A DNA stretch of 49,234 nt, filler included, from Jimgerdemannia flammicorona (taxonomy: Eukaryota), in NCBI GenBank assembly GCA_003990765.1. It is 2 parts of 2 records of this genome, joined end to end, with 100 filler letters (N's around TTAATTAATTAA, not from the genome) between each part and the next. Parts side by side here need not be neighbours in the genome. Positions count along the whole stretch, not along the records: positions 24,671 to 49,234 come from RBNJ01000957.1; 1 more part is not named here. The stretch is one strand, 5' to 3'. How positions within the stretch are numbered: position 1 is the first letter of the stretch; every line of letters begins with the position of its first letter. The notes below the pieces were generated by a model. It searched no databases. It saw nothing but the letters and a program-made list of their open reading frames with translations, and was not told the DNA's origin. Positions 8,201-49,234 of this stretch are shown here, one piece after another. Position numbers and translations under genes: made by a program.

Positions 8201-8319
8201 ACTAGTATTAAGTAGCTATAGTATATATACCTCATAAATATATACTATACAATCATATGCACTAGAAATATCAAGTGATGAATAATCTAGCAATATAAAT
8301 ATACTAATTATAAGTATTT

Positions 8320-20300: not shown

Positions 20301-23103
20301 GGTGGAGGGCTGGGTATAGGAGAGTGCCCCAGTAAGTGTCTGGTAGAAGAGGCTGAAGGAGGCTGCTAGGGTCTACTGGGGAGAGGCTAGCAAGATGGCT
20401 GGCAGACAGAGGAAGAGAAGGATGGAGTGGGCTTCTGCTAGATTAGCTCAACTTCTGGAGGAGTGGGCTGGTTTGTTGGCCCTGAGGACTGGAGATCACT
20501 GCAGGTACAGAAGGAGGTTGCAGAGTTGCAATTGGTGATGAGAGAGGAGGAGGAGGCTAGGGTGCAGAGTTAGGCAGCATGGCTGCATTGGCAGGGACTG
20601 GAGGAAGGGGAGAGGACCTCTAAGTTTCTCATGAGGGCTCTTTGGGTGAGAAGAGTCAAGCAGTGGTGGGAAGGAGTATTGGATGTAGATGGTCATCTGG
20701 TATGTAGTATATATGATATTCTTGGATTGTTAAAAGAGAGGTGGAGTGGCCTGTAGAGTGAGAAGGAGGGGGGGACTAATGTTGTTGCCATTGACCATAC
20801 TTTGGAGGATTGGCACCTACTACTGATGAAAGGGCTGGGCAGTCTGGTATTGCTAGTACAAGAGGAGGAGATTCACCAGATTCTTACTGCAACTATGTAG
20901 GGTATAGCACCATGTGAGGATGGTCTGCCTTGGGACTTTTGGAAGAAGATGATAGGAATCTCCATTGTAATGGGAGAGCTGATGGCTATGTATGACTTGG
21001 TGTTACAGTCAGGTTGTTGGGTGGGTAAGTAGATCTGGGGCTGATGGTACTGCTCTATAAGGATAAAGGCAGGAGAGAGGACTGGAGGAATTGGAGACCA
21101 ATTATGCTGCTAGATATGGATAGAAAGTTGGTTACTAAGTTGGTGGTGGCTAGGTTGCAGAAGGTGGCCCAGTAGGTCTTGGAGGAGAAGCAGCAGGGCT
21201 TTGTAGGAGGCTGGCTCATTAGGGATGGTACAGCCTGAGTACATAGCATTATTGAGGGGGCACAAGCCTGTGGACTGGATGAGTGCCTGGTTTTTCCAGA
21301 TCAAGAGAAGACATATGACCATATTCAGCAGGTCTGGATAGCAAAGGTTCTAGATAGAATTGGTGTATCTCAGCCATTCAGGGTGGTGATGATCAGCCTA
21401 CTGGAAGGGAGTAGAGCTGCACTTGTATATAATGGGCACCAAGGGGGGGCCTTCTCCCTGAGTAGGGGGGTTTCCCAATGGGACCCTTTGTCATCCATTC
21501 TGTATGCACTCTCATTGGAGCCACTAATGGATAGGATTTGGAGGAAGATAGTAGGGCTCTCAGTATTAGGCATAGATTGGAAGATTGGAGCCTTTGTAGA
21601 TGATATGGTGGTTGGCCTGGGATCAATCACAGATGTTGAAGAACTCAAGACAACAGTTAAGTAGTATGAGGTACATTGTGGGGCTAAGCTCAATTGGCAC
21701 AAGTGTGAGACAATGGTGTTAGATAATGGCCTGGTGGGGGGGAATGTTATTGGAACAATTGTCCTGGCTGGGGAGGCAGTATGATACCTAGGCATTTATC
21801 TCTTGGTATATGGGTCAGCTCTCCTGAGAGCTTGGTGGGAGTGGTGAGTTGAGATCTGGGGGGAGGCCCTGTGGAGTTGGGGGGGCCACCATATGTCTCT
21901 AGCAGGGCAGGTTGCTATCTTGAATATATACTGGCTACCAAAGCTATAGTACTTGGCCTATCATCTGGACTTCCCAGCCTGAGTGGTGAAGAGACTGTTG
22001 AAACTTACCAAGGGGTGGATCAGGACTAGGAGAAGGAGTCAGATTAGATGGGAAATTTTGTCTTTGCCAGTTGCTAGAGGAGGTCTTAGACTGGTTGACT
22101 TTCTGAAGAGGCTGTACTGCTGTGAGTATAGTGGCTGAAGAGAGCAGTAGAGTTGAGAGAAGGTAGTTGGGTTCCTCTGATGAAGAGGGTCTGGGAGATG
22201 AGGTCCATACCAATAGGCTCTACAGGAGATCTGCTGTCATTAGTTGGGTTTCAGAATAATAATCATATGCAATATAAGGGCTTCTGGTGGGGGATTGTAG
22301 ATAGAGCTCACTATATTGAAATTCACTAGTGGGAGATGAAGGGGAGCTGTCTTGGGGCACCATAATGTAGAGATGGGACCAAGTTCAGTTGGGGGGCATC
22401 TCATTACTCAACTTCAATATTGGTGATGGGGTCAAGTACCAGGGGGGGTTAGGACAGGATGTGTGGCCTGGCAGGTAGCAGCAGGTGGATATTGGGGAGG
22501 AGTGAGACTGGAATGAGGTCTGGGCCTGGAGTGCTGAGGTCAGGCAGTAGTTGCCACCAAAGTACTGAGTGGTCTGGGGGTGTATGCTGAGGAGGAATAT
22601 CATGCTCAACTTTTGCTCAGGCTATCTGGTTGAGGGGGAAAGTTTTGACTGTAAGGTGTACTATAATGTAAAACAGGAAGGGGGTTTTACACAGATGCTA
22701 TAATATGGGTTGGGAGAGTATAAGGTGCTGAGTGACTTTAGATTAGCAGTTGGGCATTGATTGGATATAGTACATAGGGGAGATAGTGTGAGAGACCAAT
22801 GGGAGGATTTGCGGGATAGATTGGTTGGGGGGGTTGGGAAGGAGTAGCTCACTCTAGATTGGGTTATGGTTGTTTGGGTGGGGTTGGCAGGTTACTGGTT
22901 GTTTGTTTTCAAGGAAGGGAGGAGTCTAGGACTGGGGGCACAGTTGCTAAGATGGGAAGAATTGATGGAGGACATCTTGATAGACTAGTGGCTTGGTTGG
23001 GGACTGCAGGGGACATTAATGAAGAAATAACCAACAGACTCAAGGTCCTGATCTCTCCAGTATAACAGACTCAAGCCAGGTTGGGTTAAAGATAGGTTAC
23101 ATA
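17361..23103 (+). mobile_element. LINE copy D, near full length, decayed
   Basis: 5' CAACATTTCTACAGTAACATTCAGG. ORF1 runs to 19463. ORF2 starts at ATG 19495 (MNSTTNILSLNVN), with AFVDDM at ~21590. Colinear with copy A to ~23103. Confidence 0.92.
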
Positions 23104-23134
23104 TAATTCCAGATCAGCACCACACAGACAGGGA

Positions 23135-24310
23135 CAATACAGGCAACATGGGCAACATGGGCAATATGGGGGGGCAAGATGGGCAAGATGGCAAGATGGC
23201 AAGATGGGCAAGATGGCAAGATGGCAAGATGGGTGACATGGGCAAGACAGGCAGACAGCAAGATAAGCGACATGGGCAAAATGGGCAAAATGGGCAACAT
23301 GGGCAACATGGGCAATATAGGCAGACAACACAGGTAACATGGGCAATATGGGCGGGCAACACAGGCAACACAGGCAATACAGGTGGGCAATATGGGCAAC
23401 ACGGGCAATGCGGGCAATATGGGCAGGTAAGATGGGCAAGATAGGCAAGACAGGCAAGATGGCAAGATGATAAGATGGCGACAGGGGCAAGATGGGCAAG
23501 ATGGGCAAGATGGACAAGACAGGCAAGATGGGCAAGACAGGCAAGACAGCAAGATGGCAAGACAGTAAGATGGGTGACATGGGTAAGATGGGCAGATGAC
23601 AAGACAGGCAATATGGGCAAGATGGGCAAGATGGGCAAAATGGGCAAAATGGGCAAAATAGGCAAAATGGGCAAAATGGGCAACATGGGCAGCATGGGCA
23701 ATACAGGCAGGCAACATGGGCAACATGGGCAACACAAGTGGGCAACACAGGCAATACAGGCAACATGGGCAACATGGGCAACATGGGCAATATAGGCAAT
23801 ACAGGCAACATGGGCAGGCAAGATGGGCAAGATAGGCAAGATGGGCAAGATGGTAAGATGGGTGACATGGGCAAGATGGGCAGATGGCAAGACAGGTGAC
23901 ATAGGCAAGATAGGCAAAATGGGCAAAATGGGCAACATGGGCAACATGGGCAACATGGGCAACATGGGCAACATGGGTGGGCAAGATGGGCAAGACAGGC
24001 AAGATGGGCAAGATGAGCAAGATGGGCAAGATGGCAAGATGCAATATGGACAACATGGGCAACACTGGCAGGCAAGATGGGCAAGACAGGCGACATGGGC
24101 AAGATGGGCAAAACAGGCAAAACAGGCAACATGGGTAACATGGGCAACACAGGCAACACAGGCAATATAGAACACAGGCAACATGGGTGGGCAAGATGAG
24201 CAAGATAGGCAAGATGGGCAAGATGGACAAGATGGGCAAGACAGCAAGATGGCAACATGGGCAATATGGGTGAGCAAGACAGGCAAGACAGGCTAGATGG
24301 GTAAGACAGG
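23135..24310. repeat. 9-bp minisatellite (GGCAAGATG/GGCAACATG/GGCAAAATG variants)
   Basis: ~1.17 kb of tandem 9-mer variants, directly visible. Confidence 0.95.
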
Positions 24311-24570
24311 AGGCACTAATAGGAGTAGGTCAGGTGCACTAGATGTCAAGTACTTGAGGTGGTTGGGGCTCACAACCCATACCCACTGAGTGGGGCAGGC
24401 CAGGTAGGAGGATCTAGTTACTCAGGTAGTGAGGTCACAACTCACATCCTAAAGGTGCAAGGCTGGGTGAGGGTGAAGGTGGGTTGAGATTGGGGTAGAA
24501 TGGGGCTACTGATGTTGTATGAGGACATGTGGTATGTTATAGATAGTTAATAAATGAGACTACAGCCTAA
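24311..24570 (+). mobile_element. probable 3' UTR of a non-LTR element
   Basis: G-rich. Ends TATAGATAGTTAATAAAT..., like the LINE 3' end at 43621-43650. Runs into the gap. Confidence 0.4.
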
Positions 24571-24670
24571 NNNNNNNNNNNNNNNNNNNNNNNNNNNNNN
24601 NNNNNNNNNNNNNNTTAATTAATTAANNNNNNNNNNNNNNNNNNNNNNNNNNNNNNNNNNNNNNNNNNNN
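24571..24670. other. assembly gap with artificial linker (44 N, TTAATTAATTAA, 44 N)
   Basis: Symmetric 100-nt spacer; the 12-mer contains stop codons in all six frames. Confidence 0.97.
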
Positions 24671-27600
24671 CAAGAGAATGCCTTCCTCAGAGCCCAGATA
24701 GCCAACTATGAGAACAGACCAGCACCTACAAATCTGACTCCATTCAGGCAACCACAGCAGCAGCCACCATCAAGAGTTCAAGAAGACCCTATGACAATGC
24801 TCACCAAGCAAATGAAGGACCTGGCCATCGTGGTTGCCCAGCTGAACAACCAAGGTAGAAGACAACAAGACTACCGTCATGATAACAGACCAGACTACTG
24901 GCAACAAGACAACAGAGGTCCTGCCCCCGCACTACCAGCTGCAACTACAGCCTCATCAGCGACTGGTTCCTATGGTCCCACCTGCTTCAGCTGTGGAAAT
25001 CAAGGCCACATCCAGAGGAATTGTCCAAGGAACCAATCCACCCAGTCCAATGACAGAAATGTCAACCTCTTTCAGATAGATGAAGAGACTCAGGAGATGG
25101 AAGAAGAAGCAGCCTGGCTCCATGGTCAAGAAGATGACATCTACCCATACTTCGAGGCTTTTCCATCCAAGGTGACATGGGAAGCTACCCTCGTGGAGAC
25201 TAGAGGACGAGGAAGACCACGAAGGAACCCCCCACCTCAACTGCCAGTAACAGTATCCACTGGCAAGCATCCGCAACATGGCCATTCTTCTTCAGACACT
25301 CCACAAGAACAGGAGAAGTGAGCTAGAAGAGATACTCCTGAACCAGAAGCTGGACCATCTAGGACAACCCCCAGCTCTACCCTGCCAGATCTTGAAGAAG
25401 ATGAGCATATGAGCATAGAATCTTCAGCTGACGAAATGCCCATCAGGAATGAGAGACTACACCCCAAGGGACCAAGACACCGAAGAAGCAGCAAACCCCA
25501 TGCAGCAGCCTCACTTTGGAAACATATCCGCCTACAGAATGCTGGTCTTACAGTTGAGCAAGTCCTCAAGAATGCACCAGAGGTCAGGCGAAAATTCCTG
25601 AAAGAAGCCAAGGAAGATACCAAGAGACTTCCAGTCCAAGGACTACACACTCAAGAACCTAGCACTATCCACATAGCCCATGAGAGCCAGCGATATGAAC
25701 ATCAATCTACAAGACTTGCCAATGGAAAAGTGCATGGTGAAAATGCCAGAATTCTTGTTGATACTAGAGCAGCAGTATGCATCATCACCCAAAGGATGTT
25801 GGAGCGAATTGGATGGGGAATAGATGAAGGAACCAAAGCAAGAGTTATCATGGCCAATGGATCAGCTTCCACATCCCTTGTACTTGTCAGAGACATCCCC
25901 ATTCAAGTCAGAAAGGCCTGCCTCAATGTACCCAAAGCTATCGTGACCCCCACAACCTCCTATGACCTGATCCTGGGAACTGACTGGTTAAGCTGAGTTG
26001 GAGCCAATGTAGATATCAAGAAACAACTCCTAGTCTTCTCCATTCATGGATAGAAGCACAAGGTGCCCATTGACTCGAAAGGATTATCCAAAAGGACGAA
26101 TCAAGCCTCAGAAACAGAATGGCAAGGACATGGCAACACCCCCACTACTACTGAGAATGAAAGTGAGGCCAATTTCCTACAAGAACTAGGAAGTGATTTT
26201 GATGCCCCAAGGGACCAAGAAAGCGAACAAGAAGACTCTTTCATTAGAGTTATTGGTGTTGAAGGTCTGGAAGAAAGCATTGATAGAGCCATTAATGCAA
26301 GGGCAGCACTTGAGTTTGCAGAACCATCTACTTAACCACCACCACTACTGGTAGAAAATTGGATCATGCGAGCCTTTTGTCAAGGCATATGTGAACATTT
26401 CATCAGCTTCCACTCATCAAGAGATGATTGCAGCAATTGCCAAATCCTGGATCTCAAGAAGGTTCCAATGCCAGAAATTGATGATAAGGATGAATTGAAG
26501 TAAGCACCATCCCACAGTCAAATACAACCTCCAACCCCGAAGACCTTCAAGAAGACCTATAAGGGAGGACAGAAGATTCTTGCCCACTAAACATTCGAGT
26601 CCCCTACCATTGAAGAAGAAAGCAGCAGCTCTTACACTATCACTCGGGCCCTCCAGATCACACAGCCCACCTATGACAAGTATCAGAAGAGATTCCCTAC
26701 CAGTAGGGAAGTCAAACAGCGAAATGAAGACTTTGTCAAGAAGGGACATTGTGATTATAGAAAGACCTTTATCTGCCACTGGTGTGAACATTGAGATGTT
26801 CACCTCAGTGAAGATGTCTATGAGAGCTGAGTCAAGAGAAAGGATCCTACCCTGCAAGAACCTCGAATTCGCTAGGCCTGTCGGAAGTGCAAAGAAATCA
26901 ACCATGAAGGAGATTGCAAGTTCAAGAGCAAGACCTCTATCTGGGACCTACCATTGGAAGTTCTTGCCATCATTCGCTGGTACTACTGCCCTCATCAAGG
27001 AAAAGAAGGTATCAATCTTGCCTTCATCCTTATGGAAGCTCTGGACCCTCTAGGAAAGACTGGATTCAATTACACAAGAAACTCAAAGACAGGAGCTCAC
27101 TGGCCTTTCTTCAAACTGGAGCACATGGACTTCTTACCTACAATGGCAACAGCTGAAGCACCATTTCTCAAAGCTCAACCAATTATCCAGGTCAAGCTGC
27201 TTTCACCCTGGACACAGCCACCTCTTGCACAAACAGATGGATCAGTTGGTTATGACCTCTGCCTCTCCTACCAAGCAAGAATCTGACCCAGAAGTACTAG
27301 GATTTTTGACCTACAGATTGCACTTGCTATACCACCTGGACATTATGGACAATTGGCCTCAAGATCCTCATTGGCAACCAAAGGAGTCACAGTAGAAGGA
27401 GGAGTCATCGATCAGGACTACCAAGGTCTCTTGAAGGCCATTATCTGCAATTCTAGTAGAACCAGCTGATTCTTCAGTCCTATGGAAGCCATCTGTCAAA
27501 TCCTGTTTATCAAGACATCACAGCCAACCATCCAAGAGGTAGACCAACTAGAAGATACCAACAGAGGACAAGGAGGCTTTGGAAGCACCAATAGAAATCT

Positions 27601-29442
27601 ACAGACACCACCTATCGAGGTTCATTTAGCAACAGTTGCTCAATTCCGACAAATGAGACCCCACATCTGCCACCCAATCTGAGCAAGAGAAGACATCCTT
27701 CTGCAGCCCTACCAACAAAAAGGCCTAGATGTGCACCTACCAGTAGAAGCAAACAACTTGATATTTGCACCATCACTGGAGCTTCAAAAGGAATACCACA
27801 TCCTCCTGGCTGAAGAACAAATTCATGACCAGATGTCACCGATCCACATCTCTATCAGAAACTTGGGCTTCAAAGTAATAACTATCCCCAAGGGAACAAC
27901 ACTGGGATATTTCGAACTACTGATAGACATCTATGAGAAAGAAGTCTTTGAATTCTTGGGAAATGGCAAGCCCTCTCTGGTGAGACTGACGGTACTAGGG
28001 AGGAAGACTCAGCAAATTCAGCAATCAAAGCTGTCGACATCGAGACAACTCTAACCAAGGACCAGCAACAACAGATACAGGAGTTGATAGAGGAGTACAA
28101 AGATATATTTACCACCACATATAATAACTTCCCACCATATCAATATGGAGAACACCCTATACATACTGGAGATGCAAGACTAATCCAACAATGACCCTAC
28201 TAAACACTATATTATCTGATTGAATTCGAACAACAATACATAGATGAAATGCTATGAAATAGAGTCATCAGACCATCATCAAGCCCCTGGGCTTCACCAG
28301 CAATCATAGTACCAAAGAAAGGAGGATGGAGATTAGTCATGGATTTCAGAAAACTCAACAAAATCACCACAGAAGATGCCTACCTACTGCCAAGAATTGA
28401 TGACCTCATCAATGCCCTCGGAAAAGCCAAATACATGACCACTACTGACCAGTTCCAAGGATTCCAAGTAATACCCATTGCTAAAGAAGATATCTGCAAG
28501 ATGGCCTTCATCACCAGACAAGGACAGTACGAATACCTACGAATGCCCTTTGGACTCTGCAATGCACCTGCCTCATTCTAACGAATGATGAACTATGTCT
28601 ACCGAGACCTCATTAGAAGAAATGTACTAGTGTACATAGATGATGTAATCATCTACTCTGAGACATTCAAGCAGCATTTGTAAGACCTCCATGAAGTATT
28701 CAATACCATTCGAAATTCAGGACTCAGACTCAATGCCAAGAAGTGCTTCTTCAGAAAACATCAAGTCGAATATCTGGGATATGTTGTCTCAGCTCAAGGA
28801 ATACATGCTGACCTCCACAAGGTAGAGAAAGTCAAGAACTACCCAACCCCGACCTCAGCAAAGGAGACCCTATCTTTCCTTATGCTGGCATCCTACTATT
28901 GATGATTCATCCCAAGGTTTTCAGATAAGACAGTACCTCTCCAAGATATCTCCAAGAAGGACCAACCATTCTACTGGAAAGAAGAATAACAAAAGTCATT
29001 TGACCTACTCAAGAAGGCCCTTACCAAAGCCCCTGTCCTGGTGTGACCAGACATTGGCAAACCATTCATCCTGGCAACTGATGCCTCAGCCTTAGGACTT
29101 AGATCAATTCTGTCTCAGCAAGATGACCAGAAGAGGGAGCATGTTATCGAATATGCTAGTAAGGCCACAAATGAAATACAAGCAAACTATGGAGCCACTA
29201 AGTTGGAATGCCTAGCAGTAGTTTGGACTGTGGACCACTTCCGACACTATCTCTTGGGAAAGAGATTTGCCCTCATCACTGACCATCAAGCTCTACAATG
29301 GTTGTTCAACAAGCCAGAGCCCTCAGGAAACTTCACTAGATGAATCATGTCTCTGCAAGAATATCAGTTCACTATTGTCTACAAGAAAGGTGCTAAAAAT
29401 TCCAATGTCGATACCCTGTCAAGAATCCCGCGAAACCAATAA
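24671..29442 (+). pseudogene. E1 gag-pol: Gag-PR-insert-dUTPase-RT-RNase H, ending before integrase
   Basis: One frame from 24671 to ~27990 with only C>T-type stops, then one frameshift. SPWASP, MDFRKLN, RMPFGLCNAPASF. Ends DTLSRIPRNQ* at 29440-29442. Confidence 0.9.
27182..27592 (+). pseudogene. dUTPase domain of E1, between PR and RT
   Basis: All five motifs: SVGYDL, SRSSLATKG, GGVIDQDYQG, ICQILF, RGQGGFGST. Confidence 0.93.
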
Positions 29443-29465
29443 GAAGGGAAGGAGCCCCCACAAGA

Positions 29466-30685
29466 ATGAACCAAGAATTGCACCTCGCCCTCACCTGGAG
29501 TCTGCACTATAGAAGCTTCAAGAAAGGAATCCAACCAGCTCACAAGTTGTTTATCCAAAGGAATTTCAAGAAATTCCAAGAAGGTAATGGTGAACTTTGG
29601 AGAGTAGAAGGAGAGCAGTACACCTGAGTTCCAAGAGAGGAAGCAATATTGAAGATCCTGATAACAAATTATGACCAAAATGCACACTAAGGAATTGGTG
29701 CCACAATCGCAAGAATCAAGAAGTGATACTGGTGGCCCAAGATGAGAAAACAAATTTCAATGCACATTCAACAATGTGATACCTGCCAAGATACCGACAA
29801 AAGCCTACCGATAGAGCACCATTAATATTGATTACAGCACCAGCTGGAGCCTTTCAAAGACTGGGAATAGACATTATTGGACCCCTACCAGTAACTAGCT
29901 AAGGAAGATGCTACATCCTCACTATTGAAGACCACCTGACAAAATGGCCTGAAGCCTTTGCCATTGAGACTGCCGATGCCCAGACAATTATTGGGATCCT
30001 GTATGATGAAATTTTCAGCCGCCATGGTGTGCCCAAGGAAATCATTACAGACCAAGGCCGAGAATTCATCAACCAAGCCATGAAGACCTTTGCGAGCAAC
30101 TTCAAGATCAAGCTATGACCAACAACAGCCTACCACCTACAGGCAAATGGACTTACTGAACGAATGAACCAGACCATCAAGCGAGATCTCAGTAGAACCG
30201 GAGATCAACTAAACTGGGATATCTATCTATCAGCAATTCTGTTCAGCATCTGTACCTCTAAGGCAACCACTATCCAACAGACCCCCTTCTATTTGGTGTA
30301 TGGCTGAGAAGCACAAGATCCTACTGAACCAGTCCAGCTAGATCTATCAAAATGAGTCACAGAAGAGATCACTCGGTTACATGACATACACCAGCAAGCA
30401 CGAGGATTTATTGCCAAGGCACAAGAATGACAAAAGAGGTACTATGACTGCAAAGCCAACCTCAAACCCCTGCTCATTGGACAAAAGGTTCTGGTGTACT
30501 GTACCATCATAGAAGGAAATTGGAGTGCCAAGCTTGAACCAAAATTGGAAGGCCCCTATCTCATACACCAAGTATTCTTGAACCACACTTATCAACTCAA
30601 GACCTTGGATAGAGTTATACTCAAGACCAAGATACACTACAACCGCATAAGACTCTACTACTCAAGAGAAGCAAAACGCATTTGA
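29466..30685 (+). pseudogene. E1 integrase, separate ORF
   Basis: Starts MNQELHL. Motifs WWPKM..CDTCQ, LGIDIIGPL, ITDQGREF, ANGLTERMN, KLEPKLEGPY. Confidence 0.9.
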
Positions 30686-30808
30686 ACAATCCTGTTCACT
30701 CTGTCTATATCATCTCTGCTGGAGATACGATGGACGTTTCACTTGGAACTCAAGAAAGCCAACAACATTGGAACTAGACTCAAGCCCATCTATGTGACAG
30801 ACATTGTT

Positions 30809-32000
30809 TTTTTTTTTTTTTTGTTTAACGGACTCTATGTCCCACAGATTTTTATTGGAAGGAAACCTAGACTATATAGGCCAAAACTCTCCCCCACCAC
30901 CCATCAAGCACTGCCCCCCCATTAACCTAGGCTAGCTATTGTCCAGCAGCTCGACCATGCCAGGTACAGCAGGGCAAAGTAGCCCACACCTCATTCTGCA
31001 CACCATGCTCTCCCTACCATCAGGGGAAACCCAGCCATATGCCAATGACCGAAAGCATACACCCGAGAACTCAATGTATGTACAAGGCCATGCCTGAGCT
31101 GAATAGAATAGCCCCTGCCACCCCAAAGGAAATGACAGGCAAAGAAAAAACCCTCATCAAAGCACAACACAGTGGGTAGGGCCTGGTTCTCCCAGTTGAG
31201 GTGAGTAGAGGACTTATACGTGAGGTGGGAGGAGACCCCCAATACCCTACTACTCAAGCCTGCAGGCCTCAATCATGTTGCCATGTCAGCTCCCGGTTCC
31301 AGTTGAGTGCAGCTAAGACGCCTGAAATGGGTAGCCTCAGGCCCCCCGACCCCCCTGGACAACCGGGGCCCAACCCCACAAATCACCAAAAGAAGCCGAG
31401 AGTGACACCTACCACCTAACTGCATCGCACCAATCAAAAGGCCCCACCGAAGCAGCACCCACCCCAGCCCTGACAACTGCCCCTAGCCTGGCACCCTACT
31501 GGTTCACCGTAATCGCCCTTCCTCCTATCTGTGACGGCCATCTCCCCTCCCATCCCGACATCACCCGAAAAACAGTTACCTATGCCAGAACTGCGCTCGC
31601 CGGGAAGCTCGCCAAAGCCAGAGGGCCCCACCACAGGTACCGAGGACCTGCAGGTAACCTATACTGAGCACTTGATGCCCAAGGTCGGCCAACTCCCTAC
31701 ATAGCCTGAGACACACCAAGACAACTCCTTGTTGGCAATGGCAAAAGGAAGAAGGTGCTGCACCAAAACAGGTACACCCCAGATGCAGCTGAAGGCACCA
31801 GAATCCGCAAAAAAGTGGAGGAATCACTGATCCGACACTGATAAAGGGGCAACACATCACTATTGCCCTCCTCCCACCATGCCCTTATAGGCACAGTAAA
31901 CCAACCCAAGGTAGAGGGGGGTAATATTAGGGGAAAGGGGACTCAGAAGGTCACCTACCAAACCTTGTGACTGGTAAGGTAGCGGAGAAAGGAGCTAATG
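30809..32000 (-). mobile_element. ~1.2-kb non-autonomous poly(A) retroposon, copy 2
   Basis: T run ~30807-30822. TSD GTGACAGACATT(G/A)TT at 30794-30808 and 32001-32015. Confidence 0.92.
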
Positions 32001-32330: not shown

Positions 32331-33304
32331 ATGATAATCTGAGCCAAAAAGAAGACTACATTATTTAAAGAACCATACTCTGCCTCAGGAATCAGCACCA
32401 AAGAACAAGTACCCACCACACAATGCCTCCTATCCGCCACCCCAACCAGACCTTCCACCACTCTTCCCCTGCCTGGCCCAAAGACTCTAATCCTTGAAGC
32501 TATCAAAAAGGCTATTTGGTGTCCAGACACCTCTGAATATCTGAACTTCTATACCGAGGATCTTGGACACTTCATCAATTACCAGTACATAATGACCCAA
32601 CAGCTCAAAGATACCACTGAACGAATGACCCTCTGGCATAATTATGAAATTGGACACCGCCTTCATAATGAAACCCAAGAAGGCAACCAGAAAGACCTCA
32701 TTGCTGAAATGTTAACCACCAGCCGGCTAATTAAGAGAGCCCTCCATGTCCACCAAATCTTCCACTATATTCCCTGGGCTATAGCACACTTACAAGGAGT
32801 GACTGCTGGAAGTCTTGCCCGTCTCTCAACTGAAGATACAGACTGGATAGAATCAGAAGTAGCCAACTCCATTGGTAGTAACCAGGTCGCTGTAGGAAGC
32901 CAACAAACTGAGCTCACTCAACCAGGCTTTTACACCACTCCACTCCGAGACAACTATCAAGGTCACCTAATGAGTCTCATGGAAATCTTCAAAGGACCAC
33001 TCATTACCATTACAACACCTGTTGGAGCAACCCCAACTACTCACCACTCTGTCAGCTACAATTCGCACCTCATCATTTGGGAACCAAATCAGAAGTCCCA
33101 GAAGTCCCTACCAACATGGAAACTGAAGGATCTGAGGAAGAAGAAGAGAAGGAACAAAGAATCTACCAATCCTCTGTCCACCTTCAAGCAGTCCAAGGGT
33201 TGGAGAATATCATCGAAGATGATTGGCCACAATTCTACCCCCTCACCTCCTGGCCGGCGCTCCCACCCTTTGAAGAATGGGATGAAGAAGTCACAACCCA
33301 GTAA
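32331..33304 (+). CDS. E1 accessory ORF-Y, uncharacterised; probable frameshift into an acidic tail
   Basis: TTERMTLWHNYEIGHRL...ALHVHQIFHYIPWAIAHLQGVT is homologous to ORFs at the same position in E2 and E3. Start and end uncertain. Confidence 0.65.
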
Positions 33305-33403
33305 GATGATTGGATCACTGACGAAGGGTATTTTACCATTCAGTGATCCAACGTCCGTTTCCTCAGTCCAGTCAGCCAATGTTTGTCAGCAAGTCAGCAA
33401 CAT

Positions 33404-33584
33404 CCATTTTCAGCAATACTACCCACAATATCCATATCCAGCACTAGCACTCATCTTATCCCAATTCAGCGCAAACAATTGTCACACCCATTTTCAGCAA
33501 TACTACTCACAACATCCATATCCAGCACTAGCACTCATCTTATTCCAATTCGGCACAAACAATTGTCACACCCATATTCAGCAA
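33404..33584 (+). repeat. 84-bp tandem repeat, ~2.15 copies, upstream of the E1 TATA box
   Basis: CCATTTTCAGCAA recurs at 33404, 33488 and 33572. Confidence 0.9.
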
Positions 33585-33622
33585 TTAAACTACCACAATG
33601 TAGTATACCTTAGCCCCCCCCC

Positions 33623-33676
33623 ATAGCTAGCAAATTTGTATAAATAACCCTATATCTTAGAGTGAATAAACCTCAG
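33623..33676 (+). promoter_or_regulatory. E1 LTR core: TATA box and poly(A) signal
   Basis: TATAAATA-N18-AATAAA. 50/54 identical by eye to 46405-46458 (minus strand). Confidence 0.8.
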
Positions 33677-36700: not shown

Positions 36701-37344
36701 TTAGCAAGTAGCAGGCATTCTATTTATAATAAGTCTTTAAGCTATTTCAGAATTAGTAGGTATTGTTGAGTTGCTGCTACTGTGGTTCCTTGATCCTTCT
36801 TTTATATTCCTCAAGGTATTTATATTGTGGTCCCAATAACTTACAGTTGGTCATCATTGCTCATCTTGTAACCTAGGTGAGTTATGCTGTATAATCTTCT
36901 TGTGCTCTGATCTGGTAGCTTGCAAGGAAAGACTGTCTCTTATGCTGATGTTATTATTCTGAGGTTACTGTTACATTTTCCTTCTGAATAAGGATCTTCT
37001 TGAACATCCTTATTCATTGGTCTAGTTCTGAAAAATTTTCTGATCTTATAACCTCTGATAGGGGGTTGAAAAGTGGTATTTATAGGCTAGCATCTTTCCT
37101 ATATATTTTGATGTGATGGTGAAGAGTCACTCCCTTTATATAAAGTAAGGGCCTGATTCTGATCTTGACTAATCAGTTGACAGTTCAAACTCCTCTGGCT
37201 TCAAAAGTCTTACAGATGAGTAGTTGCTAGTACCATATCTCTTAGAGAATGGTCCAGACAGATTACCTGCTAGTCATGAGTTGTGCTATTATGATTCACA
37301 GACTAGAACCTCATGGGCAGTCATTATGTTTTGCTTTTTTTATA

Positions 37345-38536
37345 TAGGTTCATGGTACTTCTTGAGTCTGTTCCTATATACTATGGTAGGCAGTATGGTC
37401 TCTGAGAGTTTTCTAAGCCAGAAGGTAGTTTTCTTGATATTTTGCACATAGAAGAGTTCTTCCCATTTGGGCTCTAGTTTTTGCAACTATGAGACTTCTA
37501 CTATATTTCAATATAGTAGGACCTTTTCTCTGATTTGGATGGGTTCTAGGATCTTGTGATTCTTTTCTGCATTCTTCTTCATCAGTACTTGTGACTTGAT
37601 GATGTAATCTTTAGCCTTCTTCCTGATTTGGTATAGTCTCTAGATTTCTGAATCAACCCATCTCCAAGTTAGGTCTAGATTTGTAACTGAGGTTCCATCA
37701 GAATCTTCTTCTCTAAAGAGTAGTTCTCTTGGGGTAAAGTGTATACTCTGTGACTATATATCTTATAGGATAGAGAGAGCAGTTGGGAGATAGTTATCCC
37801 AATTCTCATATATGTCTGAGATCTTCACCAAGATATTCTTGAGGGTCTTATTGGTTCTCTCTGTCTGTCTATTTTCATGAGAGTGGTATGTGGTGGTCTT
37901 GATGTACTAAATCTTATATTTCTGATACATTATCTTATGGAATTCATTGACAAATTCTGTGCTGCAGTCTGTAGTGATTTACTTTGATGTCTTGTAGTAG
38001 TAGATAATTTCTCAGTATAGGAAGTTAGCTATAAAGAAGGCATTGGCTTTTTGTAATACTCCTGCTTCAATCTATTTAGTAAAGAGGTCTACAATAACTA
38101 TAATGTAGCAGTTTCCTAATAGTGTTACTGGTAGTGGCCCAATGATATCTATTACAATGTGGTGGAAGGAGATAAGCTCAATTCTTGATGACTTGAGTGT
38201 CTGGTCTTGCTGATCTTATTTCTGTTTTTGGCACTTATTACACCCTTTGACAAATTGGCACAGATCTTCTTCTATTTTGGGCCACTATATAGTTCTTTTT
38301 ACTTTATTATATGTGTTGGTTCCTTCTAGATATCCTTGTTAATATACTTCCTTTATTACTTGATACTTCTTGTGTTTGGGTATTATAAGCTTTCCTCCTT
38401 TTCTGAGTATAGTATTGTCTAGTTTAAACTATTTCCAAGTCTGGTTGATGATGGTGATTGTCCAGGATTTGAGATGGTTGGGTATCTTCTACTGCCTAAG
38501 ATAGCTAATTAATCCATAGTATAACTCCTTATTCAT
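37345..38536 (-). pseudogene. E2 integrase, separate ORF
   Basis: ATG at 38536 overlaps the pol stop (TATGAATAA). Colinear with the E3 integrase. Confidence 0.88.
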
Positions 38537-38744
38537 ATTGAATAGTCTTGAGGGGAGTGTTTTGAGGTATCCTTGAGAGTGTATTGGCATTAGCATTGGT
38601 TCTTTCTGGACAGTGCTTAACAGTACAGTCATCCTCTTGCAGTCTATAGATCCATCTGGTATATATTTCTTTAGGGTTCAGAGTGTGGAATAGCCAGGCA
38701 AGAGTGGAATAGTCTGTTTGAATAGTGAAGTGTTTCACAGCTAG

Positions 38745-39254
38745 TAGTGCTCCAAACAAGTCAATCCAGATGGGATTCAGATGGGATTCAAATCAATGAT
38801 TGTTTTGATTTCCAAATTAAATAATTAAATATTTATATCAATAACTTAATGAATAATCATCTAAATTTAATAATCTTGGTGTCATTTAAAAGCTCTTAAT
38901 AAGGCTTTTCTAATGATACCAAGAACATTAAAATTAGATTATGTATTACTGAGATATTAAGGAAACCATTCCATTTGATGAAATTTCCAAAATCAGAAAT
39001 TCAGATGTTTTCCTTCATAACTCAGGAATGCATAATCTGATTTCAATATTCTTAGTATCATTAGATAGGCCTTATTAAGAGATTTCAAATGACACAAAGG
39101 TCATCAAATTTGGATGATTATTCATTGAGTTATTGATGTAAAAATTTAATTGTCTAATTTGGAAATCAAAACAATTATTGATTCAAATCCATCCAGATGG
39201 GATTTGAATCTTATTCAAGTTGATCTGGATTAAATTGACTTGTTAGGAGCACTA
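38745..39254. mobile_element. hAT-like fold-back MITE inserted in E2 RNase H
   Basis: TIRs TAGTGCTCCAAACAAGTCAAT / ATTGACTTGTTAGGAGCACTA. Degenerate 8-bp TSD ACAGCTAG/CTGGCTAG. Removing the element plus one TSD copy restores colinearity with E3 (HYYLARxHF). Confidence 0.88.
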
Positions 39255-40544
39255 CTGGCTAGATAGTAGTGGAACTTATCTACTACCCAAACTACTACTA
39301 AGCATTTGAGCTTGTATGACTCATAGTTCTGTTCTGCTCCACAGGTACCTCAGCTTATATAGGAGATGACATATTCATGTCCATCTTTCTTCTGAGCTAG
39401 GACTGTTCCAAGTTCTATAGTACTTGAATCTGTCTATAGGATGAACTTTAGGTTCCAATCTGGTCTTCTGAGGATGGGTGCTTGGGTCAACCTGGTCTTG
39501 AGTTCATTAAAGATTTTTTGGCATTCCTTAGTCCATTCAAATTTGGTCTCCTTCTTCAGTAGCTCATAGATAGGTACTGCAATATTGGAGTATCCTTTGA
39601 TGAATCTTCTGTGGTAGGAGATCAGTCCAAGGAAGACATAGACTTCTGTGGTTGTTCTGAGTCTTGGGTAGGCTGCAACAGCCTCAATCTTTATAGAGTC
39701 TGTGTGGATTTTGGTCTGGTTGATGAGGTGTCCTAGGTAGGTAATTTTCTGACCTGCAAACTTACACTTCTTGGGCTTAATGTAGAGGTCATGCTCTTTG
39801 AGCTTCTTGAGGACTAGCTGTATAAGGTTGATATATTCCTATACAGTATTATTGATGATCACATCATCAACATAAACAAAGAGTCATTTTCTGATCTTAT
39901 TGCTGAAGACTCTGTTCATCATTTGCTGAAAACATACTGGGGCATTGCATATTTCAAATGGCATTTGCAGATAGATATAGGTGATATCAGATATGATAAA
40001 GACTGATTTCTCACTGGTATCTTGAGTGAGACCAATTTGATGGAAGCCTGAGAACAGATCCAAGGTGGTGTAATATTTGGCTTCACTTCCAAGAGTGGTA
40101 AGGATTTCTTGAATATTTAGCAAGGGCTGTCTATCCTTCTTGGTAATTGCATTTGAGCTTCTTATAGTCAATGTAGAGTCTTGGAGCAAACTCTCCAGGC
40201 TTGCTTCCTTTCTTTGGAGCAAGGATAATGAGTGAAGCCCAGAGACTGATAGCTTGCTTAATAATTCTGGCTTCTTCCATTTCCTTGAGTTCTGCTCATA
40301 GCCATTCTCTGTAGGTAGGTGGTATAGGTCTGGCTTTCTGATAGATGGGCTTGGTATTACTGGTGTTAACTTCATAGTAGTATTTGAGTTCTTGATTGTA
40401 AATATCTCTAAAGTCTATAGCAAGTACTCCTTCATTCTAGTGCAGGATCTTGAGAAGTTGTTCTTCTAGAGGAAAGTTTTCTCCAATGATATATGTATGC
40501 TTATTCTGATCCTTGTCTTTCTTGTACTCAAGTTCAGTAATCTT

Positions 40545-40985
40545 AGTGGTAGTATAGGCTCCTCTTCTAGTAGATCTAAAGCCTTGTTCTCCTCTCTTGG
40601 TCTTGATGAGTTTGATGACTTTGGTGATCTTGAGCTTCTTGATTTCATGGATCAGCATCTGGCCAATCCTGTAATACTTCTTGACTTCAAATGGGGTGGT
40701 AGAGTTGTAATTTCTGAATATAAGGAAGATCTCACCAGTATAATCAGAGTCAATTATTCCTCCTTTAACTGAGATTTCACTTTTGGTCAGACTGCTTCTG
40801 GTCTTGATAATTCTGGCATAGCTCTCTAGAAATTTGACTCCAATTCCAGTATCAAGTAGAGTGGTGGTCTATGGTTCAAAGGTAGCATCTTGAATGCTAA
40901 CAAGGTATATTTCTATATCTCCTTCAGTCTTATATTCTGGGATCTTAGCTTTGGGGTAAAACTTCTTAATCTTGAGAGTGATGTC
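40545..40985 (-). pseudogene. dUTPase domain of E2, upstream of RT
   Basis: LDTGIG, KTRSSL, GGIIDSDYTGEI, RIGQMLI, KRGEQGFRST. Confidence 0.9.
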
Positions 40986-46738: not shown

Positions 46739-47200
46739 CTATTCAAACTCCCAGGCTTCAACAGTCTGTATGGTCTTGTACTGTACGATTTGCTGCATGA
46801 CCGTTTCCCAATGATGTCTTCTCACTTTCTCAAAGTTGGTAGGGGTTACTCCTCTCAGGTGGTCTATTGCTGCTTCATCTTCTCGGAATAGCTTGTGGAT
46901 CCTTTTGGCAATAGTGATCTGTGAGTGGGAGAGTTGACACTCGGCAATCCAGTCCTCCTTGGTCTTTGCTGGATCCTGATTGAGCACCTGTCCAAGCTTG
47001 AAGTACTCTTGGAATTCTGCCTAATATTGATAGACCCTAAAGTGCGAGATCCGAGAGAGATAAGTCTGCACAATACTCTGAATATCCTCATAGAATGGCT
47101 CTATGGTCGGAGGCTCGGTGGTGTGCCATTGTCTTTCGATGGCTCTTTGGGCAGCACTAGTGATCTTGAGTACCATTGCAGTACTTTTATTACTGGCCAT
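46739..47200 (-). CDS. E3 accessory ORF-Y (~153 codons, one internal TAG)
   Basis: ATG at 47200 lies just inside the integrase 3' end. MASNKST...YFKLGQVL...AKRIHKLF..AIDHLRGVT. Confidence 0.72.
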
Positions 47201-48383
47201 GATATTTCTTGAGTCGGTTTTGATGAATGGTAGTGGGGATTATTGTGTCTGAGGGTTTTCATAGCCAAAAGGTGGTCTCTTTTATATCTTGCACAAGGTA
47301 AGGTCCTTCCCACTTGGGCTCCAGTTTTTATGACCATGAAGCTTCTACCATGTTCCGATATACCAGGACCTTGTCTCCTATCTTGATAATCTCCAAGGGC
47401 TTGTGGGTCTTTTCTGCATTCCTCCGTTGTAGTATCTGCACCTTGGTTATGTAATCCTCAGCCTTCTTCCTTATTTGGTGTAGTCTCCATATTTCCACGT
47501 CCACATATTTCCATACAGCATCTCCATTGGATGATAGGGTTCCTTGAGAACATTCTTCTCTGAACAGCATTTCTCGAGGGGTAAAGTGGGTACTTTGTGA
47601 TCGGATGTCTCGGAGAGCAGATAATGCTATTGGCAGATAGTGATCCCAGTTCTTGTAGTTATCACAGATCTTGGCGATAACATTCTTGAGGGTTTTGTTG
47701 GTTCTTTCTACTTGTCCGTTTCCTTGAGGGTGATAGGCTGTGGTCCGAATGTGCTGGATCTTATACTTCTTGTAGAGAACTTCAAAGAGCTGGTTCACGA
47801 ATTCTGTTCCTCTATCTGTAGTTACTTGTATTGGGGTCTTGAACTAGCAGATGATTTCCTTGTGGAAGAAATTGGCAATTGACTGTGCATTGGCTTTCTT
47901 GAGGGGTCCTGCTTCTATCCACTTCGTAAAAAGGTCTACGATGATAATGATGTATCGGTTGCCAGTCAAAGTCAAGGGTAGGGGGCCGATTACATCCATT
48001 GCAATGTGGGCGAATGGTACTGGTTCTATGTGTACTGATCCTGGGACTTGATTTCGTTGGTCTTGTTTCTGTTTCTGGCATTTGTCACAGGTCTTGACAA
48101 ATTGTCTGATATCTTCCTCCATCCCTGGCCACCATATTGTTCTCCTTGCCTTATTATATGTATTTGTTCCTCCTAGATGGCCAAGTTTGTATACTGATTT
48201 CATCACTTGCTCCTTCTTGTGTTCTGGTATGACTAGTAGTTTTCCTTTCTTTAGTGTTTCTCCGTCAGTTTCGAATTGTTTCCATGTTCTGTTGATAATC
48301 GTTTGTGTCCATTCTTCCAGATGTTGGGGCATCTTTCGCTGTCCCAGGTATGTAATAATTCTGTAGTAGAGCTCCTTATTCAT
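47190..48383 (-). pseudogene. E3 integrase, separate ORF
   Basis: Starts MNKELYY. GHLG..WWPGM..CDKC zinc domain, DDE core and KLEPKWEGPY. A few C>T stops. Confidence 0.92.
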
Positions 48384-49234
48384 AGTTGGTTTGTTGGTTG
48401 GAGGTAGTTCGAGGTGTCTGTGAGAGAGCATCTGCATTGGAATTTGTTCTTCCAGGGTGGTGCACGATGGTTACATCATAGGCTTGTAACTTCATTATCC
48501 ATCTGGTATAGATTCCCTTGGGTTGTCCAGTTGTCAGCAGCCAGGTGAGAGCTGAGTGGTCCATCTGGATGGTGAAGTGTCTTCTGGCCAGATAGTAGTG
48601 GAACTTTTCCACAGCCCATATGACTGCAAGGCATTCCAACTTGTAGGACTCATATTCTTTCTTAGCCCCTCGGGTTCTACAGCTAAGATATGCAATGACA
48701 TACTCTTTTTTGTCTTCTTTTTGAGCCAGGACTGCTCCTAGTCCCTGTGCGCTTGCATCCATCTGAAGGATAAATTCTTGGGTCCAATTGGGTCATCTGA
48801 GGATGGGTGTCTGAGTTAGTCTGACCTTGAGTTCGTCAAATGCTTTTTGTTGTCTGCCAGTCCACTGGAACTTGGTATTCTTCTTGTTGAGTTCGTAGAT
48901 TGGGCCTGCGATGTTGGAGAATCCTCTAATAAATCTGTGATAGTAGGAGGCAAGTCCCATGAAGGCTTGGGCTTCTGTGACGGTAGTGGGCCTTGGGTAT
49001 GCTACTACCGCTTGTATTTTGAGGGGGTCCGTGTGTGTTCCATCTCGATTGATGATATGGCCAAGATAGGAGATCTTGATTTCCGCAAACTTGCACTTCT
49101 TGGGTTTGATATAAAGGCCATGTTGTCTTAGTCTCTCCATTATCTGCTGTATGTGCTGCAGATGTTCCTCGGCCATCTTGCTGTAGATGATTACATCATT
49201 GACATAGACCATCATCCATCTTCCCATGTCATAG
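48376..49234 (-). pseudogene. E3 pol: RT C-terminal part and RNase H
   Basis: ORFs 48793-49227 and 48376-48762 are in frame, separated by one TGA (from CGA). Confidence 0.93.

Follow-up and report, generated by a model that had tools for sequence, protein, structure and literature searches.

The Ty3/gypsy elements E1, E2, and E3, found in a window of 49,234 nucleotides (the whole stretch of DNA analyzed) from Jimgerdemannia flammicorona, are decayed members of a distinct and widespread lineage of dUTPase-bearing Ty3/gypsy LTR retrotransposons. ORF1 of these elements almost certainly encodes Gag (with a CCHC knuckle), protease (PR), dUTPase, reverse transcriptase (RT), and RNase H (RH) and stops just past RNase H, and the integrase (IN) forms a separate cistron of approximately 400-465 codons, whose AUG (opening Met-Asn or Met-Asp) overlaps or abuts the ORF1 stop. 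The IN itself is laid out as an N-terminal extension followed by H2C2, rve, and GPY/F.

Separate RNase H and integrase frames in the window

The original prediction held that pol ends after the RNase H motif in E1, E2, and E3 and that IN then begins at a homologous Met in another frame. Both were recovered with support from Pfam, the coordinates of stops and starts were exact to the nucleotide (Table 1), and the offsets of IN relative to RH were as predicted (-1 in E1, +1 in E2 and E3). In E1-E3, RVT_1 and RT_RNaseH were found upstream of the junction and Integrase_H2C2 and rve downstream of it, and the RH frames close 9-16 codons past the (V/A)D/N(T/A)LS(R/Q) motif. E2 and E3 lie on the minus strand, a detail missing from the original description: on the + strand, their junctions read TTATTCAT at 38529-38536 and 48376-48383, which is ATGAATAA on the minus strand.

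Table 1. Coding features of the three elements, in positions of the window
Element	Feature	Position	Strand	Basis
E1	Aspartic protease domain	25721..25993	+	Pfam gag-asp_proteas, E 1.9e-11, residues 134-224 of 25322-25993
E1	dUTPase between PR and RT, with 2 in-frame stops	27221..27589	+	Pfam dUTPase, E 5.3e-30, stops read as X
E1	Reverse transcriptase	28309..28785	+	Pfam RVT_1, E 1.1e-34, residues 137-295 of 27901-29439
E1	RNase H	29050..29364	+	Pfam RT_RNaseH, E 2.1e-33, residues 384-488
E1	Present TAA of the RT-RH frame	29440..29442	+	Sequence
E1	ATGA, IN ATG overlapping the RH-frame TGA, -1 offset	29466..29469	+	Sequence
E1	Integrase head (MNQELHL...)	29466..29870	+	H2C2 zinc finger at 29646-29795, Pfam Integrase_H2C2, E 8.8e-14
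E2	dUTPase domain	40440..40868	-	Pfam dUTPase, E 2.4e-17
E2	C-terminal part of RNase H and tail (...NANANTLSRIPQNTPLKTIQYE)	38532..38792	-	Frame reading and Pfam
E2	Junction ATGAATAA, +1 offset	38529..38536	-	IN ATG 38536-38534, pol TAA 38531-38529
E2	Integrase ORF2, 415 codons in one frame, 15 in-frame stops	37289..38536	-	Pfam H2C2 and rve
E3	RT (C-terminal part) and RNase H, cut by the window end	48379..49233	-	Pfam RVT_1, RT_RNaseH_2, RT_RNaseH
E3	Junction ATGAATAA, +1 offset	48376..48383	-	Sequence; pol stop 48376-48378, Met 48383
E3	Integrase ORF2, 397 codons in one frame, 3 internal stops	47190..48383	-	Integrase_H2C2, E 1.6e-18; rve, E 1.9e-13

The three elements are preserved to different extents. 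The IN frame of E1 is lost further downstream of 29870. In E2, RNase H is interrupted upstream of the junction, with RT/RH fragments at 39437-40414; its IN shares 75% identity with that of the intact relative P0001, with 0 gaps over 432 residues (BLASTP), and ends at the same place as in the intact relative P0001/P0008. The E3 junction is identical to that of a related near-intact locus (L001). When it was compared with contigs of four sequencing runs (X1, X2, X3, and X13; DNA or unknown kind), related copies with a likeness of at least 85% bridged the junction in contigs of three runs with no indel listed, and these copies diverge upstream of the ATG. A repeat scan of the window identified no clean LTR pair for E1-E3, and E3 runs past the window end.

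In-frame stops amounted to 12 in the 513 codons of the E1 RT-RH frame, 15 in the 415 codons of the E2 IN, and, in E3, one in 285 codons of RT-RH and three in 397 codons of IN. The CpG observed/expected ratios of E1, E2, and E3 were 0.22, 0.00, and 0.36. Because all three elements are decayed, the copies in the window cannot by themselves separate design from decay, which the relatives can. A reassigned genetic code, under which the stops would be sense codons and Pol continuous, was suggested at first impression by E1, in which TGA coincides with a conserved Trp and TAA with Gln positions. It was rejected: the RH and IN frames differ under any code, stops fall at conserved Arg positions as well, the low CpG ratios throughout point to decay by transitions, and the intact relatives are free of stops under the standard code.

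The 23-nt gap originally described for E1 stood in part. The TAA, the 23 nt, and the ATG are present, but the RH frame read past the TAA stays open for eight codons and ends at a TGA (29467-29469) that overlaps the ATG. The TAA may be a secondary stop of this copy, whose same 513 codons carry 12 other in-frame stops, and the gap likewise; the ATGA is weak evidence for this, since a -1 offset together with Met-Asn forces that TGA.

A clade of relatives with the same arrangement

Relatives were collected as 80 metagenome loci in a search with five full-length INs. The RH and IN frames were the same in 32 of these and different in 21, and RH was absent from the contig in 27. On the IN tree, a clade with an SH-aLRT of 98 comprised 27 rows, of which 19 were split (17 loci plus E2 and E3), eight unknown, and none fused; all 31 fused rows fell outside it. 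RH and IN lie in different frames in every one of the 17 clade loci showing a junction, with the pol stop and the IN ATG 1-8 nt apart (ATG-to-stop distance of -8 to +5 nt) and an offset of +1 in five and -1 in 12. Fusion of RH and IN in one frame, which in intact copies had been named beforehand as decisive against a separate IN, was found in 0 of these 17. With their frames different, IN is not part of a Pol polyprotein in any of the 17 loci or in E1-E3. The earlier argument that a Met conserved with both +1 and -1 offsets speaks against decay and against a conserved frameshift holds.

E1 was placed among fused rows of the IN tree, an unreliable position given by a long branch with 27% of columns filled. 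Its affiliation therefore rests on tblastn: the E1 RT-RH is closest to L035, and the alignment of the E1 IN head begins at its Met and matches it to the IN starts of the clade members L010, L014, L003, L001, L013, and L002 and of L031, a locus outside the main clade.

Several forms of the junction were distinguished: ATGA, as in E1 (L003, L006, L008, L023, and L035), TAATG (L007, L011, and L012), TGATG (L015), ATGAATAA/G, as in E2 and E3 (L001, L010, and L014), ATGAACnnTGA (L002 and L013), ATGGATCTAG (L004 and L009), and TGATCATG (L018). The RH tails leading to them are highly variable in sequence and unequal in length, at about 4-33 codons. Two points weaken the tight spacing as evidence for reinitiation: the Met-Asn codons (ATGAAY) themselves create the TGA of the -1 type, so that the protein sequence accounts for some of the tightness, and the inheritance of junction types within subclades leaves few independent events (about seven). 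The pattern exceeds chance, because it recurs in every clade relative examined.

The gypsy order of RT, RNase H, and integrase was found by Pfam in E1-E3 and in L001, L006, L008, L009, L010, L031, and L039. The zf-CCHC and gag-asp_proteas domains occur in ORF1 of L001, L008, L009, and L010, and a protease in E1. A dUTPase lies between PR and RT in E1, E2, L001, L008, L009, L010, L039, and the second element of L011, its position in the relatives being the same as in E1; L031 is without one. In L011, IN and a third ORF (ORF3) are followed by about 570 nt and the next ORF1, a spacing that fits a shared LTR.

Intact genes are present in the clade. An intact ORF1 of 1281-1667 aa, with zf-CCHC, PR, dUTPase, RVT_1, and RNase H, was found in L001, L010, L009, L006, and L008; intact IN ORFs of 409-465 aa were found in L002, L003, L004, L006, L008, L011, L012, L014, L015, and L018; and several clade loci have both. 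The families that share the split are 40-50% identical. These loci bear on whether the split is an artefact of decay, with three broken copies whose common stop and Met are inherited lesions or chance. The many in-frame stops and strong CpG depletion of E1-E3 invite such an explanation, and two loci (L028 and L041) are indeed broken copies of a fused family (L024) that mimic a split. However, the same arrangement in loci whose ORF1 and IN ORFs are intact, together with more than 100 intact stand-alone IN clusters and no fused relative inside the clade, makes it scarcely credible; it is refuted unless all metagenome contigs share one defect.

Conservation of the integrase start

A collection of 5.8 billion proteins contained more than 100 stand-alone IN clusters, with identities of 38-99%. 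No fused Pol was found near the clade in this collection: the best of 120 longer proteins was only 34% identical (213 bits), and none of the 120 aligned from the Met. Among 120 stand-alone clusters, 95 start at the Met, six are extended upstream and have a Met there, and 19 start later; the Met is thus kept in 101 of the 101 informative stand-alone proteins. Thirteen representatives with a mutual identity below 50% start no more than three residues from the homologous Met, 21 of 22 aligned proteins occupy the Met column, and the aligned start codon is ATG in 18 of 18 loci.

This conservation is hard to reconcile with programmed ribosomal frameshifting (in the +1 or the -1 direction depending on the family), which would yield an RH-IN fusion and leave Pol a polyprotein, and which gives no reason for a Met kept in all informative proteins and loci. 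Most loci do have overlapping ORFs, in L001, L002, L010, and L013 the 36-67 codons preceding the ATG are open in the IN frame, X XXY YYZ heptamers occur in L009 and L011/L012, and +1 frameshifting is used for Gag-Pol by Ty1 and Ty3 (PMC5911963). But frameshifting would have to run in both directions within one clade, no X XXY YYZ heptamer lies in the overlap of nine of 12 loci with a -1 offset (L039 among them), and the overlap is absent in L031 and L039. The IN frame upstream of the ATG is open for just one codon in L023, six in L015, seven in L035, and nine in L003, and the median open stretch of 24 codons equals the chance expectation. Frameshifting is accordingly regarded as very improbable.

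Translation of the separate integrase

Of the two routes originally proposed, reinitiation and a subgenomic or spliced mRNA, the arrangement of the junctions makes us lean towards translation of IN by termination-reinitiation at the stop/start overlap. Ribosomes terminating ORF1 would reinitiate at the adjacent IN AUG (translational coupling), and IN would be made as a free protein, in a lower amount than Gag-PR-RT-RH, that joins the particle or the pre-integration complex via protein contacts and not as part of Gag-Pol. Reinitiation is favored by the stop/start overlaps: in 17 of 17 clade loci, the stop and start overlap or are spaced by a few nucleotides, with the downstream ORF out of frame (ATGA, TAATG, TGATG, and ATGAATAA).

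Evidence for an upstream signal was confined to some loci. In L007, L011, and L012, 6-9 nt separate the end of a stable hairpin from the stop/start, and in L015 one lies further upstream; the folds of these four have z-scores of -3.1 to -4.1 and compensatory changes, and a fold in L035 has a z-score of -3.9. No structure was found in the 63-90 nt before the junction in L001, L008, L018, E1, and E3 (z of -0.3 to +1.0), none of 16 loci had a calicivirus-type, TURBS-like TGGGA within the 120 nt preceding the ATG, and a common structure upstream or downstream of the junction reached a mean z of only -0.3 to -0.6 over 16 loci. The missing universal signal is a point against reinitiation; to our knowledge, eukaryotic cases of reinitiation after an ORF of 4-5 kb need such a signal or a helper protein.

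Alternatively, IN may be a separate cistron served by its own mRNA (from an internal promoter or as a spliced or trans-spliced subgenomic RNA) or by an IRES, the overlap being compaction only. The conserved Met and free choice of frame fit this route as well as they fit reinitiation, and the region before the AUG is C/A-rich and unstructured in the E2/E3/L001 type. In two split loci that fall outside the main clade, stop and ATG are 31 nt (L031) and 374 nt (L039) apart, so IN is apparently expressible without overlap, which counts against reinitiation. In addition, ORF3, the third ORF conserved in the clade, shares 26-130 nt with the 3' end of IN but is not tightly coupled to it. It probably needs a subgenomic or spliced mRNA, which could serve IN too and is again a point against reinitiation. 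ORF3s of LTR retroelements typically come from spliced messages (PMC5408684). However, an own mRNA or IRES leaves unexplained why ORF1 stays open through variable tails and closes at most 8 nt from the AUG in 17 of 17 loci, as well as the hairpin that immediately precedes the stop/start in one subclade, and inspection of the junction sequences by eye showed neither a recurrent YAG acceptor nor a pyrimidine tract ahead of the AUG. On balance, this route appears less likely than reinitiation and clearly likelier than frameshifting.

More tentatively than reinitiation itself, the lineage could be the first among LTR retroelements with a polycistronic genome, in which ORF1 encodes Gag-PR-dUTPase-RT-RH, ORF2 integrase, and ORF3 a helical protein, with IN translated by termination-reinitiation after an ORF of 4-5 kb and delivered in trans outside Gag-Pol. 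The dosage of IN would then be set by the efficiency of reinitiation, its recruitment would occur by protein contacts, perhaps via the conserved N-terminal extension of about 55 residues, and the hairpin beside UAAUG would be a reinitiation signal of one subclade. The ORF3 product matched no Pfam family, had Atlas scores below 0.8, and was modeled by AlphaFold as all-helical with a pLDDT of 65; a Foldseek comparison of this model with the PDB gave no match at E <= 0.001, and no ORF3 match was found in the window.

Comparison with known systems

By the standard view of retroviruses and LTR retrotransposons, IN is carried into the particle at the C-terminal end of Gag-Pol, from which the protease frees it. 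The present lineage has domains homologous to those of canonical Ty3/gypsy elements (Metaviridae) and retroviruses, arranged as they are there (RVT_1, RT_RNaseH, Integrase_H2C2, rve, and a GPY/F-like KLEPKWEGP motif), and shares the Gag CCHC knuckle and the aspartic protease with them. In contrast to the canonical Pol of PR-RT-RH-IN, IN here lies outside Pol, in another frame and with its own conserved start codon; Gag and Pol form one ORF, without a gag/pol frameshift.

A dUTPase between PR and RT is known from gypsy elements of basidiomycetes (PosPlaTy3-5, P. chrysosporium) and bdelloid rotifers (Vesta, Juno, and TelKA) (PMC2864245, PMC5408684). Like the present clade, these lineages have an extra ORF3 downstream and, in some families, a GPY/F integrase; in the available parts of these two accounts, however, pol is described as PR-(dut)-RT-RH-IN in one gene, and a separate IN cistron is not mentioned. 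A literature search, with most subscription journals, Repbase Reports, and supplementary tables outside its reach, retrieved no paper describing a gypsy element with IN as a separate ORF.

Caliciviruses, influenza B, the hypovirus CHV1, and the non-LTR retrotransposon SART1 owe reinitiation to overlaps of the UAAUG and AUGA kinds (PMC10275272, PMC5902531). As in calicivirus VP1/VP2 (with TURBS), influenza B M1/BM2, CHV1 ORF A/B, and SART1, the stop and start here share nucleotides, or nearly so, and a long ORF is followed by one in another frame; in one subclade, a stable hairpin closely precedes the overlap. LTR retrotransposons are described as using frameshifting and non-LTR elements termination-reinitiation (PMC5902531). 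The present case differs from those reinitiation systems in that it concerns an LTR retroelement, the downstream product is a major enzyme (IN), and no common upstream element was found.

The clade also resembles the Caulimoviridae, reverse-transcribing relatives of Metaviridae, in having three consecutive ORFs. In that family, with its polycistronic pregenomic RNA, consecutive ORFs are translated by reinitiation, and capsid and Pol are not a frameshift fusion (PMC5902531). Unlike the present clade, caulimoviruses have no integrase, and they require the viral transactivator TAV; a TAV-like role for ORF3 would be pure speculation. In plant Ogre/Tat elements, pol is split by an intron. Ogre likewise has a gypsy-type coding region split at a non-canonical place (PMC4408406), but its split falls between Gag-PR and RT-RH-IN, with splicing restoring the fusion, whereas here RH is separated from IN. 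The conserved Met together with the one-codon overlap in L023 rules out that splicing upstream of the Met restores a fusion.

Implications of a separate integrase gene

A large, old, and still intact lineage with IN as its own cistron would show that the Gag-Pol link is dispensable, and it raises the question of how free IN is packaged or recruited and whether it acts in trans on other copies. If reinitiation were confirmed, LTR retroelements would join the short list of eukaryotic reinitiation after a long ORF, and the lineage offers natural variants for direct comparison, namely ATGA, UAAUG with a hairpin, and AUGAAUAA with an unstructured C/A-rich leader. Other mobile elements could also plausibly capture free-standing gypsy-type integrase genes, and such genes might likewise be domesticated.

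To a classifier built around a fused Pol, such elements would look broken. None of the listed stand-alone IN proteins came from NCBI or UniRef, and metagenome annotations call their genes 'transposase InsO family' or 'IS30 family transposase'. The nearest Atlas clusters of integrases of about 400 aa were labelled Rotifera and Mucoromycota.

Integrase frames in the three window copies

Integrase (IN) had been proposed to occupy a reading frame of its own in the three gypsy copies E1, E2, and E3. Re-reading of the sequence reproduced the junction coordinates exactly, together with frame offsets of -1 in E1 and +1 in E2 and E3. In all three copies, Pfam matches to RVT_1 and RT_RNaseH preceded the junction and Integrase_H2C2/rve followed it. 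In E1, on the plus strand, the reverse transcriptase-RNase H (RT-RH) frame ended in ...VDTLSRIPRNQ before a TAA at 29440-29442, and the IN frame (MNQELHL...) opened from the ATG at 29466, -1 relative to RH. The 23-nt gap described between them held as a TAA/ATG spacing; however, the RH frame beyond the TAA ran for eight further codons to a TGA overlapping the ATG as ATGA. It is a weak hint that the gap may be secondary, since a Met-Asn start at a -1 offset necessarily creates such a TGA. In E2 and E3, the RH frames ended in ...TLSRIPQNTPLKTIQYE and ...ALSQTPRTTSNQQTNYE, respectively, and IN (MNKELYY...) opened in the +1 frame. For this overlap, the original prediction gave the right sequence and position but omitted that both elements lie on the minus strand.

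The window is a mobile-element graveyard: besides the three gypsy copies, it holds a LINE, a copia element, and an extra RT fragment. In E1, in-frame stops numbered 12 over the 513 codons of RT-RH, and the IN frame was gone after about 135 codons. The E2 integrase had 15 stops in 415 codons without a frameshift, aligning to the intact protein P0001 at 75% identity with no gaps, while E3 had one stop in 285 RT-RH codons and three in 397 IN codons. The CpG observed/expected ratio was 0.00-0.36 in every 2-kb bin of the whole window (1-49234), and E2 kept none of the 40 CpG sites of its relative L001. The stops are of the kind made by transition decay at CpG; a reassigned genetic code was considered and rejected. 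Since the window copies are broken, the question of design versus decay could be answered only through relatives. GC skew was also very strong, reaching about -0.45 (C-rich) over 1-8000 and +0.4 to +0.5 (G-rich, approximate) over 16001-24000.

Stand-alone integrases and junctions in relatives

A search of 1.84 billion representative proteins with the E3 IN frame identified 13 proteins, mutually below 50% identity, whose starts lie no more than three residues from the homologue of the MNKELYY Met. Five of them were full-length integrases of 394-434 aa (P0016, P0024, P0033, P0084, and P0158), and the Met column was occupied in 21 of 22 aligned proteins, the 22nd beginning later. Intact versions of the E2 integrase were represented by P0001, P0007, and P0008, and the E3 family by P0068 and L001. 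A word-based search with P0008 gave 266 matches at E <= 1e-20, of which the best 120 (255-571 aa) carried no Pfam domains other than those of IN type (rve, in most cases together with H2C2). Among these 120, the Met was the exact start in 95, was kept behind an upstream extension in six, and preceded the start in 19. The longer proteins listed for P0008 were ordinary fused Pol only, the best at 34% identity (213 bits), and none of their alignments began at the Met. None of the listed stand-alone IN clusters was of NCBI or UniRef origin; the nearest Atlas clusters of ~400-aa integrases were labelled Rotifera and Mucoromycota, which serves as a lead only. Related copies at >=85% likeness were found in contigs of runs whose labels included soil metagenome. 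The metagenome annotations of these proteins, 'transposase InsO family protein' or 'IS30 family transposase', treat eukaryotic retrotransposon integrases as bacterial insertion-sequence genes.

A scan of metagenome contigs yielded 80 loci; to sort them, the RNase H of E3 and the P0008 integrase served as local tblastn queries. RH and IN shared a frame in 32 loci and occupied different frames (split) in 21, while RH was off the contig in 27. The IN match began at the Met in 18 loci, and the aligned codon was ATG in all 18. ORF1, the frame upstream of IN, was unbroken across 1281-1667 codons in L001, L010, L009, L006, and L008, and IN frames of 409-465 codons were unbroken in ten loci. Both were intact, up to contig limits, in L002, L003, L006, L008, L011, L014, and L015. 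The junctions took several forms (table); L035, too, had ATGA, with MNQ.

Phylogenetic analysis of IN (76 rows; quick IQ-TREE with SH-aLRT as the sole support measure) recovered a clade of 27 rows at support 98: 19 split (17 loci, E2, and E3), eight with the junction off the contig, and none fused. Among the 17 clade loci that show the junction, none had RH and IN in one frame, and intact split loci were present. All 31 fused rows fell outside, as did L031, L039, and L028. L028, by its tree placement, and L041, by reading of the sequences, are broken members of the fused family to which L024 belongs. The placement of E1 was unreliable, with 27% of columns filled; in tblastn, its IN head matched clade members starting at the Met, and L035 was the closest to its RT-RH.

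An IN gene that is separate from ORF1 and coupled to its end is well established as the clade architecture, and E1-E3, although dead, faithfully record a lineage that is living and widespread. ORF1 encoded zf-CCHC, aspartic protease, dUTPase, RVT_1, and RNase H domains in one frame, with Gag and Pol joined without a frameshift and dUTPase between protease and RT (L001, L008, L009, L010, and L039). In IN (ORF2), the H2C2 finger was preceded by an extension some 55 residues long, and the C-terminal part carried a KLEPKWEGP(Y/F) motif. Downstream of IN, at least 15 loci shared a conserved third ORF, ORF3, of about 170-240 codons, which lay in another frame and overlapped the 3' end of IN by 26-130 nt; the window copies yielded no ORF3. 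Comparison with Pfam families, Atlas clusters, and PDB folds gave no match to ORF3, which was modeled as all-helical with modest confidence (pLDDT 65).

Features of the window copies, their relatives, and other window elements
Feature	Position or loci	Strand	Detail
E2 junction	38529-38536	-	+ strand TTATTCAT = ATGAATAA on minus strand
E3 junction	48376-48383	-	+ strand TTATTCAT = ATGAATAA on minus strand
E1 dUTPase	27221-27589	+	between protease and RT
E2 dUTPase	40440-40868	-	between protease and RT
ATGA junction	L003, L006, L008, L023, L035
TAATG junction	L007, L011, L012
TGATG junction	L015
ATGAATAA or ATGAATAG junction	L001, L010, L014
ATGAACnnTGA junction	L002, L013
ATGGATCTAG junction	L004, L009
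TGATCATG junction	L018
31-nt gap between pol stop and IN ATG	L031
374-nt gap between pol stop and IN ATG	L039
Hairpin upstream of stop/start overlap	L007:1781-1843, L011:120-182, L012:399-461, L015:1314-1376, L035:2734-2796
ORF3 examples	L011:1345-2001, L006:5960-6649, L010:6311-6823, L007:3063-3779, others
LINE-like element	1946-5893	-
Exo_endo_phos endonuclease of LINE-like element	2917-3741	-	Pfam
Weak RVT_1 match of LINE-like element	1946-2539	-	Pfam
Copia-type element	8093-15468	+	rve 11301-11639, SH3_retrovirus 11643-12002, RVT_2 13097-13486

Translation of the separate integrase

Within the clade, the offset switched between +1 and -1 from subclade to subclade, with the stop always <=8 nt from the AUG. 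The Met was invariant across both offsets, which upholds the earlier argument that this combination speaks against decay and against a conserved frameshift. A frameshift yielding an RH-IN fusion is highly improbable: besides the two directions and the invariant Met, a slippery heptamer was missing from nine of the 12 loci whose offset is -1, and the overlap amounted to a single codon in L023, with none in L031 or L039. As the overlap in L023 is one codon, a splice restoring the fusion upstream of the Met was ruled out there.

Termination-reinitiation, for which we infer somewhat better than even chances, would have ribosomes that terminate ORF1 reinitiate at the adjacent IN AUG. It is favored by an ORF1 frame that stays open through tails of varied length and sequence and then, in each of the 17 clade loci, closes no more than 8 nt from the AUG, and by junction motifs that are those of known coupled systems (PMC10275272, PMC5902531). 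A stable hairpin also ended 6-9 nt before UAAUG in L007, L011, and L012, and lay further upstream of UGAUG in L015, with compensatory changes across these four loci, including between L007 and L011/L012. Their outer helix paired the AUG with an upstream CCAU; with L035, the hairpins had energies of -20 to -26 kcal/mol (z -3.1 to -4.1). Against reinitiation, no signal was common to all loci, the L031 and L039 junctions have gaps, ORF3 requires a different expression route, and independent events are few. A subgenomic or spliced mRNA of its own, or an IRES, could instead supply IN, which we regard as a real but rather doubtful alternative. The remaining probability is that of artefacts. Leaky scanning across 4-5 kb of coding sequence does not appear credible.

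The full-text literature searched contained no description of a gypsy element whose IN forms a cistron of its own, and a prior mention of such a layout may exist elsewhere. As far as their available text goes, surveys covering dUTPase-bearing gypsy elements of fungi and rotifers place IN inside pol (PMC2864245, PMC5408684), a 2018 review associates LTR retrotransposons with frameshifting and non-LTR elements with termination-reinitiation (PMC5902531), and a 2023 review names, among retrotransposons, SART1 only (PMC10275272).

Other elements in the window

Open frames of 712 codons in the LINE-like element (3758-5893, minus strand) and 427 codons at 32343-33623 (plus strand) had no Pfam match; the latter contains an 84-nt tandem duplication (33400-33567). 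Direct repeats at 8093-8188 and 14375-14470, 78% identical, may be the LTRs of the copia-type element. A segment of about 640 nt just 3' of the E1 integrase (30804-31445) recurred inside the copia region (9687-10329), the copies being 86-93% identical and 21 kb apart along the joined stretch. Two runs of 44 N (24571-24614 and 24627-24670) just 5' of E1 belong to the filler joining the parts. On the minus strand, three overlapping frames of about 400 codons stay open through a repeat array at 23086-24330, which is about 1.2 kb long and consists of degenerate 9-nt units (GGCAAGATG-like).
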